A stretch of 64,000 nucleotides of DNA from an uncultured Gemmatimonadaceae bacterium (GCA_964599725.1 CAZRGT010000016.1:34351-98350), one strand, 5' to 3'; positions 17,655-23,212 are shown, numbered from the stretch's first letter. Numbers and translations: made by a program. Notes: generated by a model from the letters alone, not told the origin.

Positions 17655-17682
17655 AATGCCTCCTTGATTTCTCATCTCGTAT

Positions 17683-17708
17683 GACGCAACCGCGCTTCCG
17701 ATCGTTGC
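17683..17708 (-). promoter_or_regulatory. ECF-sigma-type promoter for small protein
   Basis: GCAAC-N17-CGTC. Confidence 0.45.
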
Positions 17709-17752
17709 GGCAACGGTGTCCGAGACGCGTCAGGGCTATTAGCTTTGCTGCC

Positions 17753-18523
17753 GTGACCGGCCTCGCGCGATTCCGGGATCTCCTCACTCAGCTCATTCTC
17801 CGGGACCTGAAGTCCCGCTATAAGCAGACCTATTTCGGGGCGCTGTGGGTGTTCGGCCGCCCGCTGGTCGAGCTGGGCGTGTACGTGCTCGTGTTCGGGG
17901 CGTTTCTTCGTGCACCGTCGGACGGCGTGCCGTACCCGCTGTTCGCGTTCTCCGGTGTCGTGCTGTGGAGTTTCGTCTCCGGCGCCATCTCTCGCGGCGC
18001 CCGCAGCGTCCAAGGTGAGGGAGGCCTCGTCGCCCACGCACCGTTTCCCAAGGCGACGCTGCCCCTGGCGGCGATCGTAGGGGCGTTGCTCGATTCCCTC
18101 CTCGCCGCCGCCATGTTGGGCCTGCTGCTCGCCGTCCAACACGTCGTTCCGTCCCCGAGCGCCTGGCTGTTGCTGCCGATTGTCGCGATCCTCGGCATCA
18201 TGGTCACGGGGCTGGTGTTGATCGGCTCGGCGCTGAACGTCTTCTATCGCGACGTCGGACATCTGGTCGATCTCGGAGTGCGTGTCTGGCTGCTGCTCAC
18301 ACCGGTCGCTTATGCCCGCTCGGTGGTGCCCCCACAGTATCAGACGCTTTACAACCTCAATCCGCTCGTTTCGCTGTTCGACCTCGCCCGAGCCGCCCTG
18401 CTGGGCACGGGGGTGGTTCGTCCCGAGGCGATGTGGTACCCACTCGGGGTGGGGCTCGTGTTTCTCGCCGTCGGTGTGGTGGTGTTCCGCGCGGCCGAGC
18501 CGTATTTCGCCGAGTCGGTCTAG
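17753..18523 (+). CDS. ABC-2 permease, Wzm/TagG type
   Basis: RDLKSRYKQTYFGALW, FPKATLP, YRDVGHL, LNPL; about six TM segments; GTG start. Confidence 0.92.
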   Translation: MTGLARFRDLLTQLILRDLKSRYKQTYFGALWVFGRPLVELGVYVLVFGAFLRAPSDGVPYPLFAFSGVVLWSFVSGAISRGARSVQGEGGLVAHAPFPKATLPLAAIVGALLDSLLAAAMLGLLLAVQHVVPSPSAWLLLPIVAILGIMVTGLVLIGSALNVFYRDVGHLVDLGVRVWLLLTPVAYARSVVPPQYQTLYNLNPLVSLFDLARAALLGTGVVRPEAMWYPLGVGLVFLAVGVVVFRAAEPYFAESV

Positions 18524-18527
18524 GCTC

Positions 18528-19745
18528 ATGGCGATCACCGTATCGGGAGTCTGGAAGCGCTACCGGCTGCGGAGCGAGTCGCTCAAGGAGCTGGTGATCG
18601 GACTGCTGCCGCGCCGACGACGCGGCCCGCCGCCCCGGCCCAAGTCCCTGTGGGCGTTGTCGGACGTGTCGTTTCATGTGGAGCGCGGCTCGACCTTCGC
18701 CCTGGTGGGAGCCAACGGGTCGGGGAAGTCGACCATGCTCAAACTGATCGCCGCCATGATGAAGCCCACGCGCGGATCGATCCATGTGGACGGCCGGCTG
18801 TCCCTGCTCAGTTTTCTGGGCGGCTCCTTCCATGGCGACCTGACGGGGCGGGAGAACGTCTTCCTGGAAGGGGCGCTGCTCGGCCTCACACGGAAGGAGC
18901 TGCGCGCCAAGCTGGACGCCATTTTCGACTTCGCCGGCCTCGAGGAATTCACCGACGTGCCGGTGAAGTTCTACTCCTCGGGAATGGCGCTCCGGCTCGG
19001 GTTCGCGATCGCGGCGCACATCGAGCCAGAGGTGCTGCTGATCGACGAAGCGTTCGCCGTCGGCGACACGGCATTCCGCGACCGCTGCCTGGGGAAAATG
19101 CTGGACTTCAAGGCGGCGGGCACCACCATGGTTCTGGTGTCACACGAGCGGTACCTGGTCGAGCAGCTGTGCGATACCGCCGTGCTGCTCGACCACGGAC
19201 ACACCGTGGCGAACGGGCGTCCCGAGGAAGTGTTCGCGGCCTACGAGCGGGTCAACGAAGCGGCCGAAGCGGCGACGGACGAAGACGATCTCGAGGGCGA
19301 ACCGGTGCGCTCTCCGCTCCAGATCGAGCGGGTCGAGATCACGGGCGGTGAAGGCGAGGACGTGCCCCTGTTCCGACCCGACGACGCCCTCGTGGCGCGG
19401 GTGCACCTCCGGGCGCAGCGGGACATCTCCGGCGGATCCCTGGGGATCCAGGTCGCGCGCGAATGGCATGTCCTGCACGGGACGCGCTGCAACCGCCAGG
19501 GCATCGAGATCAACGCTCGAGCCGGCGAGCGACTCACACTCGAGATCGAGTACCGCCCGCTCTCGCTGGCGCGCGGGTCCTACGCGCTCCATGTCCTCGT
19601 GTACGAGCACCGACTCGCGGTGGAACCAGTGCTGGTCCTGAAGCGGGCGGCGCGCTTTCGGGTCACGCTCCCTGAGGCGGAGGGCGTGGGCCTCATCCGT
19701 CTCGCCCACACCTGGCGCCTGTTGAACGGCGGCGACGCGCCCTAG
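18528..19745 (+). CDS. ABC ATPase, Wzt/TagH type with C-terminal Wzt_C-like domain
   Basis: GANGSGKST, YSSGM signature, LLIDE, LVSH; about 160-aa C-terminal beta domain. Confidence 0.92.
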   Translation: MAITVSGVWKRYRLRSESLKELVIGLLPRRRRGPPPRPKSLWALSDVSFHVERGSTFALVGANGSGKSTMLKLIAAMMKPTRGSIHVDGRLSLLSFLGGSFHGDLTGRENVFLEGALLGLTRKELRAKLDAIFDFAGLEEFTDVPVKFYSSGMALRLGFAIAAHIEPEVLLIDEAFAVGDTAFRDRCLGKMLDFKAAGTTMVLVSHERYLVEQLCDTAVLLDHGHTVANGRPEEVFAAYERVNEAAEAATDEDDLEGEPVRSPLQIERVEITGGEGEDVPLFRPDDALVARVHLRAQRDISGGSLGIQVAREWHVLHGTRCNRQGIEINARAGERLTLEIEYRPLSLARGSYALHVLVYEHRLAVEPVLVLKRAARFRVTLPEAEGVGLIRLAHTWRLLNGGDAP

Positions 19746-20743
19746 GCGCCGGCACGGGCGCGCTCACTGGTCCACCACGCGAGCGCCTTCCTCAGTCCGC
19801 CGGACGGCTGCAAGTGCCGCAGCACCGCCAGGCGCAGCCCGAGCGCGCGCTCGAGATCGTACGGCGTCACGCGCCCAGCCAGAGCCACCGGTGGCTCCAC
19901 ACCCGCCAGCTGCGTGGCCGCTCCGAGCCACGCTCCCGCGGCTGCCCCGTCCACGATCTCTTTGGCATCCAGTCGGCGTGCGATCTCGGACCAGTCCACC
20001 GGTACACCGCTCGCCCAGATGACCGCCGCATCAAACAGCCGCACCAGTAGGAATGCATAATCGGGAATCAACAGGCTATGCGCCGTGGCGCTCCAGAACA
20101 ACTCCGTTGCCGACGGCACGCGAAACCGGATCCCCGAGCGTTCCACGTCGATCCCCGCATCGTGGTAACGCTGCCAAGCCACGCCCGGGTTCACTCCCTG
20201 AGCGTATGTGGTGTGGAGCTCGACGCCGACCCGGCGTTGACTCCACAGGGTGGGCAAATGGTGATGTTGCGGTCGCGGGGGCTTGGTTGGTGATGTCCGA
20301 TCATATCCCCGCCTCCGGAGGTCATGCCAAACCTCCCGGGCGTGGGCCAGCGGAACCAGAACATCAACGTCATTGGTGACGCGGGCGTCGGCGAACGGAT
20401 AGCGGTCCACGGCGAGCCGTCGCGCCACACCCTTCAAGAACACCGCCGGCATGTCGATCTCATGAAAGATCTCCGCCAATGCCTGCGCCTCCGCTTCGAT
20501 CAGCAGATTCCGAGCGGTCTCTTCACGCGCCTGCGCGGAGACCCACGCAGCCAGCTCCGGGTCGATTCGGTCCATGACCCCCAGTTGGCGGAGCCGTCGG
20601 TACAGCCAAATGGCACACCCCTCGAACGCCACTAGGCGCCTCATCCCTGTCCCCTCGGTGGTCCCCCACGCGGGGGCCAAGTGCTCAGGCGGGAGACCCC
20701 CGCGGAATCGGAGGGTATCGATCAGCAGCCGCGCCGAATTCAC
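19742..20743 (-). CDS. Nucleotidyltransferase family protein (NTP_transf_5-like, as found in lasso/RRE clusters)
   Basis: FLKGVA...Y...R...DVDVLV, HHLP...VELH. Confidence 0.85.
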   Translation of the reverse strand: MNSARLLIDTLRFRGGLPPEHLAPAWGTTEGTGMRRLVAFEGCAIWLYRRLRQLGVMDRIDPELAAWVSAQAREETARNLLIEAEAQALAEIFHEIDMPAVFLKGVARRLAVDRYPFADARVTNDVDVLVPLAHAREVWHDLRRRGYDRTSPTKPPRPQHHHLPTLWSQRRVGVELHTTYAQGVNPGVAWQRYHDAGIDVERSGIRFRVPSATELFWSATAHSLLIPDYAFLLVRLFDAAVIWASGVPVDWSEIARRLDAKEIVDGAAAGAWLGAATQLAGVEPPVALAGRVTPYDLERALGLRLAVLRHLQPSGGLRKALAWWTSERARAGA

Positions 20744-21174
20744 GCTTCGACGACGGCGGGGCGCGCCTCTGGAAACCGGGCGATGACGGTATGGCGTTGC
20801 GGGTGCTCGGGATGGGACTCCAGATAGGGCTCACCACCGCGGACCAGCCAGGCATGGGCCCCCAATGGCGACGGACCGGACTTGTGAACGCCAATCCAGA
20901 GCTCGACCGGGCGGCCGGCGCGACGCAGGAGATGATACAGGACGGCCGCGCGCTTGAGGCAGGTCCGGCGCCACGGATTGGGCAGGTTGCGGAGCAGGCG
21001 GTCCACCCACCGGGCCAGGGATGCGTCGTCCAGATCCTGAGCCGGGGGCCGGCTGCCGCGCCCGCCCAACCAGCCCGCCAGACGGGAGAAGGAAACGAGA
21101 TAGAGCAACGGTGGGACCACGGCCACCATGGCGGTGGCCCGCAGGCGCCACGTCAACGGCAGGCGCGCCGTCAC
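20740..21174 (-). CDS. Lasso-type leader peptidase (B2, transglutaminase-like)
   Basis: TCLKRA catalytic Cys, LWIGV, AHAW catalytic His; GTGA overlap. Confidence 0.9.
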   Translation of the reverse strand: MTARLPLTWRLRATAMVAVVPPLLYLVSFSRLAGWLGGRGSRPPAQDLDDASLARWVDRLLRNLPNPWRRTCLKRAAVLYHLLRRAGRPVELWIGVHKSGPSPLGAHAWLVRGGEPYLESHPEHPQRHTVIARFPEARPAVVEA

Positions 21175-21443
21175 GCGCCCTCGACCACCAGCAGGTCTGC
21201 CGTGCGACACGTGTCGAGGAATTGCCGCACGCTGGCTTCTGCCTGCTCCGGCGTCACCTCGTATTGCTCCACGAGCAAGCGCACCAGCTCGTCCACGGAT
21301 CGCGGCGCTTCGAGCGCCTGCAACAGGATCAGGCCGCTCTCGGTCACGGAAAAATAGCGGCGCGTTCCCAGATGCAGCACGACCCCGTCGCCTTCGACGT
21401 CGGCGAGGCGCAAGTCCGGATGTCGGATGTAACGTTGGCTCAT
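21171..21443 (-). CDS. RiPP recognition element (PqqD/B1 family)
   Basis: VEGDGVVLHLGTRRYFSVTESGLILLQAL...VEQYEVTPEQAEASVRQFL, 90 aa. Confidence 0.92.
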   Translation of the reverse strand: MSQRYIRHPDLRLADVEGDGVVLHLGTRRYFSVTESGLILLQALEAPRSVDELVRLLVEQYEVTPEQAEASVRQFLDTCRTADLLVVEGA

Positions 21444-22357
21444 GTGACGAGCTCGATCAGACGGTTCGGTCGGGAGAACAAGTCGCGCCCCAACGTAACC
21501 CGGTAGCAACGCGCCTGCCCGGTCAGTCGTGTCAGCACGTTCAGGTGGTCCTGCGCCAGGTCGGGCTCGAGCATCACCCATGCGGACCACCGCACCAGCT
21601 CCGCCACCGCCCCCCGCCGATCCAGGGGCTTGGCGCTGGTCTTGGCGTTTCCCACGGCCGTGAAAATAACGACCTCCGGGTCGACGAGGGGGGTCCAGAC
21701 ACCCCCCAGATCCTCCGGCCGGTATCCGGTCTTCCCCCGATCGGGGAGGGATACCCCCCCGGCTCGGGCGAGTAGCCCCAGGCCGCCATCGCGCAGGGCG
21801 ATGGGCGCGCGACAGGTGTGCACGATGATGCGATCGCCGCGGCGCTCGAGGAACGCCGCGTCATCTGTTCCTACGCGCCAACCCGACGCCGCCAACAGGG
21901 CGGCGGTCGTGGACTTTCCCGCATGCGCGTTGCCGGCCACGAGCCAGCCACGGCCCTGCGGGTCAATCGCCGTCGCCGCGTGCAGGTGATACCAGCCCAC
22001 CCGCCGCAGCAAGACGATCAGGACCACCATCAGGAAGGTGCGGGTACAGAGCTCGAGCTTTTCAACCGCGGCCGGGGAAAGACGGATCGACGCCGTAGCA
22101 GCATCGCCAGGAACTTCGGCGATCGCGGGGGCTTCCTCCCACAACACGCGGAGGCCCCGACCTCCGGGGCCTCGCGCGAAGCGCACCTGGGGTTGCTCGA
22201 AAACGACCTCCGTCAGCGCCGGGATCGCGGCGGCCGAGACCGAGACGTCCAGAACCAGGCCGGGTGGCGCCGCGAGGGATAACCTCGCAAGCCATCCCTC
22301 GAGGACCGCCTTGACGGAGACGTCGCTGCATCGAATCTCGATGGCGGGGGCAGACAT
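21440..22357 (-). CDS. HPr kinase-related P-loop kinase
   Basis: HLHAA, GNAHAGKSTT Walker A, GTDD acidic pair. Confidence 0.85.
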   Translation of the reverse strand: MSAPAIEIRCSDVSVKAVLEGWLARLSLAAPPGLVLDVSVSAAAIPALTEVVFEQPQVRFARGPGGRGLRVLWEEAPAIAEVPGDAATASIRLSPAAVEKLELCTRTFLMVVLIVLLRRVGWYHLHAATAIDPQGRGWLVAGNAHAGKSTTAALLAASGWRVGTDDAAFLERRGDRIIVHTCRAPIALRDGGLGLLARAGGVSLPDRGKTGYRPEDLGGVWTPLVDPEVVIFTAVGNAKTSAKPLDRRGAVAELVRWSAWVMLEPDLAQDHLNVLTRLTGQARCYRVTLGRDLFSRPNRLIELVT

Positions 22358-22451
22358 GGCTCAAAAAAGCCTGCTCAAAGCGCCAAACGCCAGGCCGCGG
22401 GAAGCGACCTGGCGCATGGAGGTAGAGACCCTACAGGACTAGGAGCTGCGA

Positions 22452-22477
22452 CCGCCGTGACGGAAACCGCGAGGCGG
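22452..22477 (-). other. Stem-loop just 3' of precursor gene
   Basis: CCGCC...CGG-AAA-CCG...GGCGG imperfect hairpin 8 nt past the stop; no U-tract. Confidence 0.45.
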
Positions 22478-22485
22478 AACAGGCA

Positions 22486-22653
22486 TCACGCCGAGCGACC
22501 GCCCTGCTGCGTGCGGCTGGCCAAGTTGCCCTGGCTGTTGGTCGAGTTGCCGCGCGTCGGCTGGCCGAGCGACACGAGCGTCACGCCTTCCAGCGACGCC
22601 TCTTCTGTCAGCTTCGGGGCCACGAAGGGTTTGCGCGTTGGTTTCTGCTCCAC
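22486..22653 (-). CDS. RiPP precursor peptide, 55 aa, lasso-type leader
   Basis: GGGAGG RBS 7 nt before GTG; MEQKPTRKPFVAPKLTEEASLEGVTL-VSLGQPTRGNSTNSQGNLASRTQQGGRSA; FxxPxL and penultimate Thr; first gene of RRE/B2 operon. Confidence 0.85.
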   Translation of the reverse strand: MEQKPTRKPFVAPKLTEEASLEGVTLVSLGQPTRGNSTNSQGNLASRTQQGGRSA

Positions 22654-22691
22654 GATGAGCCTCCCTTTTCCGGTGAATGTCGCCGCTGGGT

Positions 22692-22867: not shown

Positions 22868-23212
22868 CTAACGCGGCAAAGTGAGCCAGCCAGCCACGAG
22901 TCCTCCAACTTGAGCGACGATCGCGATGGGCAAGGACAACCGTCGCGCGCTGGCATGCTCAGACTCGATGACCAAGAAGGTGACGAGGAGCGCCGCAAAG
23001 AAGGGCCAATTGGCCTGCAGATGGAAAAAATGAAGGATGCCGTCCCCGGTCCAAGCGGCGGCGAAGCCACCAGCGAGCGAACCCAACAGCATGGCAACCT
23101 GTTTGGCACGGCGAAACGGTAGCGCGCCGAGCGGCAGGAACACCACGAGGCCGACCAGCGCAGCCAGGACCGCGCAAGCGAATCCAACCGCATATCCGAG
23201 GACTGTCTTCAT
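22868..23212 (-). CDS. Small integral membrane hypothetical protein (about 4 TM)
   Basis: MKTVLGYAVGFACAVLAALVGLVVF...; AGAGG RBS right after tRNA. Confidence 0.7.
   Translation of the reverse strand: MKTVLGYAVGFACAVLAALVGLVVFLPLGALPFRRAKQVAMLLGSLAGGFAAAWTGDGILHFFHLQANWPFFAALLVTFLVIESEHASARRLSLPIAIVAQVGGLVAGWLTLPR

Follow-up and report, generated by a model that had tools for sequence, protein, structure and literature searches.

A Kinase and a PF14907 Nucleotidyltransferase in a Cyclase-less, Lasso-derived Peptide Module of Gemmatimonadota: Probable Successive Action on a Core Serine

Introduction

What do an HPr-kinase-like enzyme and a nucleotidyltransferase-fold enzyme do when their genes follow that of a peptide precursor? 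The question is raised by a 64,000-nucleotide stretch of DNA from an uncultured Gemmatimonadaceae bacterium (GCA_964599725.1, CAZRGT010000016.1:34351-98350; hereafter called the window), which encodes both enzymes on its minus strand. The window has a G+C content of ~68% and belongs to a metagenome-assembled Gemmatimonadota genome of freshwater sediment origin (2.99 Mb, 83.6% complete); close homologues carry the source name "Gemmatimonadales bacterium," which assigns it to Gemmatimonadales. The nucleotidyltransferase (NTase) is a member of PF14907 (NTP_transf_5), a large family that lacks both a solved structure and an assigned reaction and whose members occur in decorated lasso peptide systems, with linear polyphosphorylated peptides (LPPs), and in numerous modules of various phyla that have no cyclase.

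A preliminary description of the locus had proposed a two-step chemistry in which the kinase forms phospho-Ser or phospho-Thr and the NTase then adds a nucleoside monophosphate (NMP). We consider it reasonably probable that the two enzymes do act successively on a core serine of a ribosomally made, post-translationally modified peptide (RiPP), a cyclase-less one of lasso descent, and that the adduct is a sugar. The two-step idea as such is already published, the pair having been called typical of LPP clusters and of lasso clusters resembling that of paeninodin (PMC13381572). New here are the combination with a B2 protease and a probable Wzm/Wzt exporter, the failure to find a cyclase, and the occurrence in Gemmatimonadota.

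Results

Five Genes Form a Conserved Module

Five genes follow one another on the minus strand. The precursor gene (A; 22486-22653), read directly from the sequence, encodes 55 residues and starts with a GTG codon five bases past a GGGAGG ribosome-binding site. It is followed by the genes for an HPr-kinase-like P-loop peptide kinase of 305 residues (K; 21440-22357), recognized by profile, alignment, and model; a PqqD-family RiPP recognition element (RRE) of ~90 residues (B1; 21171-21443); a B2 cysteine protease of the lasso type, with an uncertain start codon (20740-21210); and the PF14907 NTase of 333 residues, again with a GTG start (N; 19742-20743). The span 19742-22357, described earlier in terms of kinase and NTase, thus also holds the genes for the RRE and the protease. 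The kinase stop and RRE start codons share ATGA, the B2 stop and NTase start codons share GTGA, and the four enzyme genes, all overlapping or abutting, are translationally coupled.

A survey of 401 sampled Gemmatimonadota genomes detected the NTase in 26 and an orthologous kinase (>350 bits) in 27. The order K-B1-B2-N recurred in 24 of the 401, in several unrelated genomic settings, for instance beside galK in the genus of the window and beside Wza/Wzc-like genes in locus L005. Another genome (G157) gave only a weak match in the kinase search and was used for no claim; in another (G236) the module is cut by a contig end. The genes for precursor, RRE, and kinase adjoin in 24 genomes, which is the genomic context of the predicted phosphorylation of an RRE-bound precursor on serine. 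The conserved module contains neither a glycosyltransferase nor a sugar-activating gene, and the earlier characterization of the locus as minimal and clean is a fair one in that cyclase and glycosyltransferase genes are both missing from it.

The Kinase Has the Fold and P-loop of HPr Kinase/Phosphorylase but Is Not One

Profile matches of the kinase were weak (Hpr_kinase_C, E 0.005; TIGR04352, E 1.7e-6), and it fell below the cut-offs for HPr kinase/phosphorylase (PF07475, 16.9 versus 33.3 bits; TIGR00679, 16.1 versus 240 bits). Its identity is nonetheless beyond doubt because the catalytic residues are conserved in 26 relatives, aligned down to 35% identity. They comprise the P-loop (G142..G147-K148-S149-T150-T151), the T164-D165-D166 segment, and H124/H126; K148, S149, and T151 were invariant, and G142, G147, T150, D165, D166, H124, and H126 were conserved in at least 90% of the 26 kinases. 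The residues match, at equal spacing, H148, G163, K169, S170, D186, and D187 of BsfK from Bradymonas sediminis, mutagenesis of which proved the His, Gly, Lys, Ser, and Asp-Asp to be essential; its partner BsfN is uncharacterized (PMC10368454). The structural model (predicted local distance difference test score, pLDDT, 93.0) showed a fold of the PEPCK/HPrK type, matching PEPCK at E 3e-7 and the HPrK/P chains 1ko7, 3tqf, and 1knx at E 4e-5, and among PDB profiles 1jb1 was matched at E 0.0015. The kinase thus shares fold and P-loop with HprK/P, yet it is no true HprK/P; in catalytic residues and fold it agrees with the HprK-like RiPP peptide kinases, a group comprising PadeK, ThcoK, PsmK, BsfK, and LppK.

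Two loci showed irregular kinase genes. In one genome (G330), a kinase-RRE pair is present twice (L045, 4866-5905 and 6296-7485), and in the first of the two kinase copies the P-loop is degenerate (GVVKSAT) and the TDD segment is missing. In another (G127), the orthologous kinase gene is interrupted by one in-frame TAG (L047, 9592-10494), while the adjoining matches to RRE, B2, and NTase are free of internal stops; this kinase gene may be a pseudogene or reflect a sequencing error.

The NTase Fold Is That of NMP Transferases, but the Reported Adduct of a Relative Is Hexose

The NTase scored 79.2 bits with PF14907 (gathering cut-off 31.2), covering profile positions 12-243 of 249. It contains K104-G105, D125-V-D127, and a third carboxylate, E175, located on strand 173-177 of the model. 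In 52 NTases, aligned down to 30% identity, K104, R121, D125, D127, H162, E175, H177, and H222 were invariant, and G105 was conserved in at least 90%. The preliminary description was therefore right that both enzymes keep their catalytic motifs (GKST and DD; KG and DVD), which lie on the minus strand and vary little or not at all among relatives.

In the model (pLDDT 93.9), residues 75-290 superpose on known nucleotidyltransferases. The nearest fold was MenT1 (Z 13.4, root mean square deviation 3.2, 178 aligned residues), followed by ANT(2'')-Ia (Z 13.1), LnuA (Z 10.9), and, more weakly, FKRP (Z 6.7); Foldseek gave E 1e-4. When the NTase alignment was run as a profile against the PDB, no match at E up to 1 was returned. 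MenT1, ANT(2'')-Ia, and LnuA share with the NTase the core fold over residues 75-290 and the carboxylate triad, but they are only 11-16% identical in sequence and act on tRNA or antibiotics, whereas the NTase is extended at both termini by conserved helical parts and is encoded in a RiPP operon. A MenT/AbiEii-like toxin identity, raised by the best fold match, was ruled out by context, size, and PF14907 membership. A complex prediction for NTase plus precursor, run without controls, scored 0.00.

Taken literally, the preliminary description would have the NTase move an NMP from an NTP onto phospho-Ser or a Ser/Thr hydroxyl, so that the mature peptide keeps a stable nucleotide through a pyrophosphate or phosphodiester bond. 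The three nearest solved folds belong to genuine NMP transferases whose acceptors are hydroxyls, the DxD plus E triad and the basic cluster K104/R108/R109 suit a triphosphate donor, and a later review keeps nucleotidylation as a possible intermediate for PsmN of the pseudomycoidin system (PMC9266682). However, PsmN, the only characterized relative, adds +162 or +324, i.e. one or two hexoses, to phosphorylated pseudomycoidin (PMC6993621), and not the +305 to +345 of an NMP. Furthermore, no nucleotidylated product was reported for kinase/NTase clusters in the literature searched. We regard a stable nucleotide on the mature peptide as unlikely. The authors of the PsmN study (PMC6993621) and the later review considered either a new kind of glycosyltransferase or else nucleotidylation or substrate supply for a host enzyme.

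The same data separate what stands of the chemistry first proposed for the window from what does not. Deletion of psmK leaves pseudomycoidin wholly unmodified although psmN is present (PMC6993621), so a kinase-first order has a precedent in PsmK/PsmN, whereas transfer of an NMP is unsupported, the reported adduct being a hexose. A phosphodiester-linked side chain likewise fits the phosphatase-resistant hexose adduct that PsmN forms on phospho-Ser; nucleotidylation would come in, if at all, as an intermediate.

FKRP, a ribitol-phosphate transferase of the same fold, brings in another conceivable reaction. An NTase of the LicD/FKRP kind would transfer a phospho-alcohol or sugar-1-phosphate from NDP-X onto a Ser hydroxyl or phosphate with release of NMP, and a diphospho-plus-hexose species of pseudomycoidin, albeit minor, was indeed observed (PMC6993621). 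Yet transfer to a free hydroxyl needs no kinase, while the products of PsmN vanish without PsmK, and the FKRP match is much weaker than those to the NMP transferases. This reaction appears to us quite improbable.

Ser at Core Position +2 Is the Likeliest Site

The precursor has a typical lasso leader of the form F(-17)xxP(-14)xL(-12)...T(-2)L(-1), with the same -17/-14/-12/-2 spacing as in BsfA. Its core of 29 residues begins with V-S-L-G, ends in Ala, and lacks Asp and Glu. Upstream of the same module, 33 homologous precursors were found, one to four per locus, in which F10, L21, T25, and L26 are invariant. The 33 cores are variable and short (6-40 residues), with a high content of Gly, Ser, Asn, and His. 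Each of them (33/33) contains Ser or Thr; Ser occupies position +2 in 23/33, and Ser or Thr is found at +1 or +2 in 27/33. Judged by this conservation, the Ser at core +2 would be the likeliest phosphosite. A modification site near the scissile bond is favored by the conserved Ser+2 together with the fusions of B2 to NTase and the Ser3 precedents described below. A C-terminal Ser phosphosite as in paeninodin was considered and found unlikely, since only 6/33 cores end in Ser and the window core ends in Ala.

Several cores are of low complexity (L005, 2601-2798; L036, 3615-3785; L045, 6106-6282; L035, 10710-10856). They consist of His-Gly repeats or of runs of 7-10 Asn broken by His, many ending in HGHxS, and these cores could bind metals. 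It is the long, basic, or His-rich cores that tend to adjoin Wzm/Wzt genes.

The Product Should Be a Linear, Leader-cleaved Peptide

Lasso-type parts are present in the form of a discrete RRE, a B2 protease, and a YxxPxL...T(-2)-style leader. The RRE matched PF05402 (E 7e-15) and lasso PqqD NCBIfam models, and its homologues have 91 residues. The protease scored 68.2 bits with NF033537 (cut-off 33) and also matched PF13471; its C84 and H119 are invariant, and E131 is conserved in at least 90%. A signal-peptidase gene was not found in the module.

An Asn-synthetase-like macrolactam cyclase was found neither in the window nor in 31 related loci totaling ~430 kb. The source genome gave two PF00733 matches on other contigs, the score with the lasso cyclase model being 200 versus a cut-off of 525 bits. 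These genes were rejected as a distant cyclase, since both satisfy the model for true Asn synthase and encode ordinary glutamine-hydrolyzing enzymes. In addition, the window core has no lasso acceptor Asp or Glu at core positions 7-9, where such a residue occurs in 8/33 cores. Because no cyclase was found and B2 keeps its invariant Cys and His, the product should be a linear peptide from which the leader has been cleaved.

A Wzm/Wzt-type Transporter Adjoins the Module

Convergent with the NTase gene, two genes on the plus strand (17681-19745) encode, according to profile matches, a Wzm-type ATP-binding cassette (ABC) ABC-2 permease (17681-18523) and its partner, a Wzt-type ABC ATPase with a Wzt_C domain (18528-19745), a candidate exporter subunit. 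The stop codons of the Wzt and NTase genes overlap. A Wzm/Wzt pair adjoins the module in ~11/28 related loci, one of them in a different genomic setting, which suggests that it is the probable exporter of the peptide. The loci concerned are the window, L004, L005, L034-L036, L042, L045, L049, L053, and L054, and the Wzt_C domain was seen in the Wzt proteins of the window, L004, and L005/L006. Alternative exporters occur in other lineages, namely D-type ABC exporters (L049, L050) and a MacB/FtsX permease (L055, L059).

NTase Fusions Point to a Peptide Substrate

In-frame B2::NTase fusions were found in P0113, P0126, P0153, and locus L039 (G146), and one is also listed at L007, 6684-8219. A PqqD::NTase fusion occurs as P0268 (L062, 6001-7392), the gene of which heads a cluster with a FemAB-like acyltransferase, a CapK-like ligase, and three glycosyltransferases. 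A word-based search for longer NTase forms had found none, and an exhaustive search later recovered the fusions. Tandem NTase paralogues, which protein clustering had seemed to indicate, proved to be an artifact, as a B2::NTase fusion had pulled B2 proteins into the NTase cluster.

The exhaustive search for PF14907 yielded 27,620 representative clusters at E <=0.001, of which the 126 at 1e-30 represent the present subfamily. PF14907 also occurs in polysaccharide loci without a kinase (L049, L058, L062). Further architectures were a GT41::NTP_transf_5::TPR protein of 929 residues (an ESM Atlas cluster with 70 members, Pseudomonadota), NTase fused to a PD40/Tricorn-like propeller (~620-650 residues), and polysaccharide deacetylase::NTase; the labels given for the last two forms are P0242, P0243, P0246, P0250, and P0263, and P0225.

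These occurrences bear on the question whether the NTase leaves the peptide alone and acts on a glycan or small molecule, e.g. the polysaccharide exported by Wzm/Wzt, or makes the donor for another enzyme. Such a role is suggested by the Wzm/Wzt pair, with its carbohydrate-binding Wzt_C domain, converging on the NTase gene, and by kinase-free PF14907 proteins in polysaccharide loci or fused to polysaccharide deacetylase or GT41; mere substrate supply to a host glycosyltransferase was, moreover, among the options left for PsmN (PMC6993621). On the other hand, the NTase is fused to an RRE or to a leader protease in several lineages and is translationally coupled to B2 in the window. It accompanies K-B1-B2 across unrelated settings, in some of which ordinary peptide-type ABC exporters replace Wzm/Wzt, and the conserved module lacks any glycosyltransferase. 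The B2::NTase and PqqD::NTase fusions make a peptide-directed role of the NTase much likelier than one on an unrelated small molecule, and we hold a function away from the peptide to be improbable.

Genes and Signals around the Module

Upstream of the five-gene row lie tRNA-Leu(TAA) and galK. A small membrane protein of ~114 residues is encoded between tRNA-Leu and the precursor gene (22868-23211); its homologues, 47-49% identical, occupy the same position in L004 and L035, and it is possible that it plays a role in immunity or regulation. A scan for sigma-70 promoters and terminators gave no signal exceeding chance, and the stretch after the precursor stop codon folded no better than shuffled sequences (z 0.2).

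No run established as RNA is on record for this sequence. In a freshwater-sediment run labeled "METAGENOMIC RNA-Seq" (X3), a 281-nucleotide contig spans exactly the precursor gene (window 22427-22685) with zero mismatches. Its depth was 162.6, compared with ~5-6 for contigs on kinase, RRE, NTase, Wzt, and galK, and its end, at 22685, runs into Illumina adapter sequence. These values hint that the precursor gene gives a short, abundant transcript beginning ~32 nucleotides before the GTG, contig depth being a poor measure and the RNA label a guess.

Discussion

Proposed Pathway

We propose that the PqqD-type RRE would bind the lasso-type leader, upon which the kinase would phosphorylate core Ser+2, possibly repeatedly. 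The NTase would then convert the kinase-made phosphate to a phosphodiester-type adduct; by analogy with PsmN, a sugar is likelier than a stable NMP. B2 is predicted to cut the leader off behind T-L, and the resulting linear peptide would leave via Wzm/Wzt, or via D-type ABC or MacB-type systems elsewhere. Gene content, order and coupling, the intact catalytic residues, the folds, and the fusions are observed, as is the lack of any cyclase among the genes found; from them we infer each chemical step, the site of modification, and the order of NTase relative to B2.

Several observations weigh against this pathway. In G311, K-B1-B2 is followed by a MacB-type permease and an NTase is missing; in G370, 25 kb separate the kinase from B1-B2-N, with a D-type ABC exporter at the latter; and in G271, B1-B2-N stands in a polysaccharide-type locus with no orthologous kinase nearby, as does the PqqD::NTase fusion P0268. 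The window NTase was likened to PsmN, LppN, and BsfN by their published descriptions. Deletion of LppN, moreover, had no effect in a heterologous host, and no LppN activity was detected (PMC13381572), so that the earlier statement that NTP_transf_5 proteins have no well-established substrate is half true: it agrees with the inactivity of LppN but passes over the in vivo roles reported for PsmN. The source genome being 83.6% complete, a cyclase may have been missed. Finally, the conserved module has no sugar-activating or glycosyltransferase gene that would identify the adduct. Together with G025, which has K-B1-N without B2 (L046, 6786-8917; RRE-NTase gap of 34 nucleotides), the exceptional genomes G311, G370, and G271 indicate that the NTase provides an accessory second step and that the pairing of kinase and NTase is not obligate. 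The situation is similar in Bacillota, where paeninodin carries a kinase alone (PMC6993621).

Could the Phosphorylated Peptide Itself Serve as the "NTP"?

A more specific form of the second step, which we put forward tentatively and by analogy, is that a Ser-O-triphosphate peptide made by the kinase may serve the NTase as its "NTP," yielding a Ser-O-phospho-sugar diester. Such a peptide is formally an NTP with the peptide replacing the nucleoside, and HprK-like RiPP kinases polyphosphorylate a single Ser. The hydroxyl of an acceptor, i.e. a hexose, a disaccharide, or the end of a glycan, would attack the alpha phosphate, with pyrophosphate as the leaving group. This would explain why the kinases polyphosphorylate and why the second enzyme has an NTase fold instead of that of a glycosyltransferase. 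It would also explain why PsmN forms chiefly products bearing a monophosphate and one or two hexoses, why these resist phosphatase, and why the module lacks a sugar-activating gene. The failure of LppN would be explained as well, as the right acceptor may have been missing in the host. The minor diphospho-plus-hexose species of pseudomycoidin fits the triphosphate route less well.

The Gemmatimonadota module comes close to the smallest size possible for such a system, its genes specifying a single precursor, a kinase, an RRE, a protease, and an NTase. Since it is minimal and lacks cyclase and glycosyltransferase, it is a good place to decide whether the NTase is a glycosyl, nucleotidyl, or "peptidyl-phosphate" transferase. 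Once settled, the PF14907 reaction would establish a novel kind of phosphate-linked modification of peptides and explain the polyphosphorylation by HprK-like kinases.

Comparison with Known Systems

In the fosfazinomycin pathway, the kinases FzmF and FzmK convert a phosphonate to a triphosphate-like diphosphate, and FzmU takes this NTP surrogate and joins the phosphonate to a peptide, freeing pyrophosphate (bioRxiv 10.64898/2026.09.23.753898). As in the window, kinase action is followed by an NTase on a RiPP scaffold, and the fzmU gene adjoins that of a discrete RRE, FzmT. The systems differ in that, for FzmU, it is a small phosphonate that becomes activated, with the peptide as acceptor; FzmU is listed under IPR043519, and the likeness is one of gene logic alone. 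A phosphonate gene family in which PF14907 neighbors a kinase has also been noted.

BsfK phosphorylates core Ser3 of BsfA and is stimulated by the RRE BsfB1 (PMC10368454). The bsf system resembles the window in the essential kinase residues and the leader spacing, whereas a cyclase and Ile at position -2 are found in bsf only.

The LPP systems of Bacillota (Popov et al. 2026) include the cyclase-less cluster lppA-K-B-S-D-N of Paenibacillus alginolyticus, in which LppK places one to four phosphates on S3 (PMC13381572). Both LPP clusters and the window lack a cyclase, combine a kinase with a discrete RRE and an NTase, and encode a lasso-like [Y/W/F]xxP leader; the LPP phosphosite S3, like the site favored here, is near the N terminus of the core. 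LPP clusters are often near capsular polysaccharide loci, and the window module is near a polysaccharide-type Wzm/Wzt exporter. A SpI-like (SipW-type) signal peptidase and an MsbA-like pump are confined to the LPP systems, whereas the window has a lasso B2 cysteine protease and Wzm/Wzt and belongs to Gemmatimonadota.

In the pseudomycoidin system, PsmK puts one to three phosphates on one Ser; the PsmN product is resistant to alkaline phosphatase, and the D134A/D136A mutant of PsmN is inactive (PMC6993621). The psm cluster encodes a lasso cyclase and a D-type ABC exporter, and its target is a C-terminal Ser, in contrast to the window with no cyclase found, a core ending in Ala, Ser+2 as the likely site, and Wzm/Wzt. 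What the two share is an HprK-like kinase and an "uncharacterized NTP transferase" with a DxD motif in one RiPP operon, and in both of them the NTase gene directly follows that of B2.

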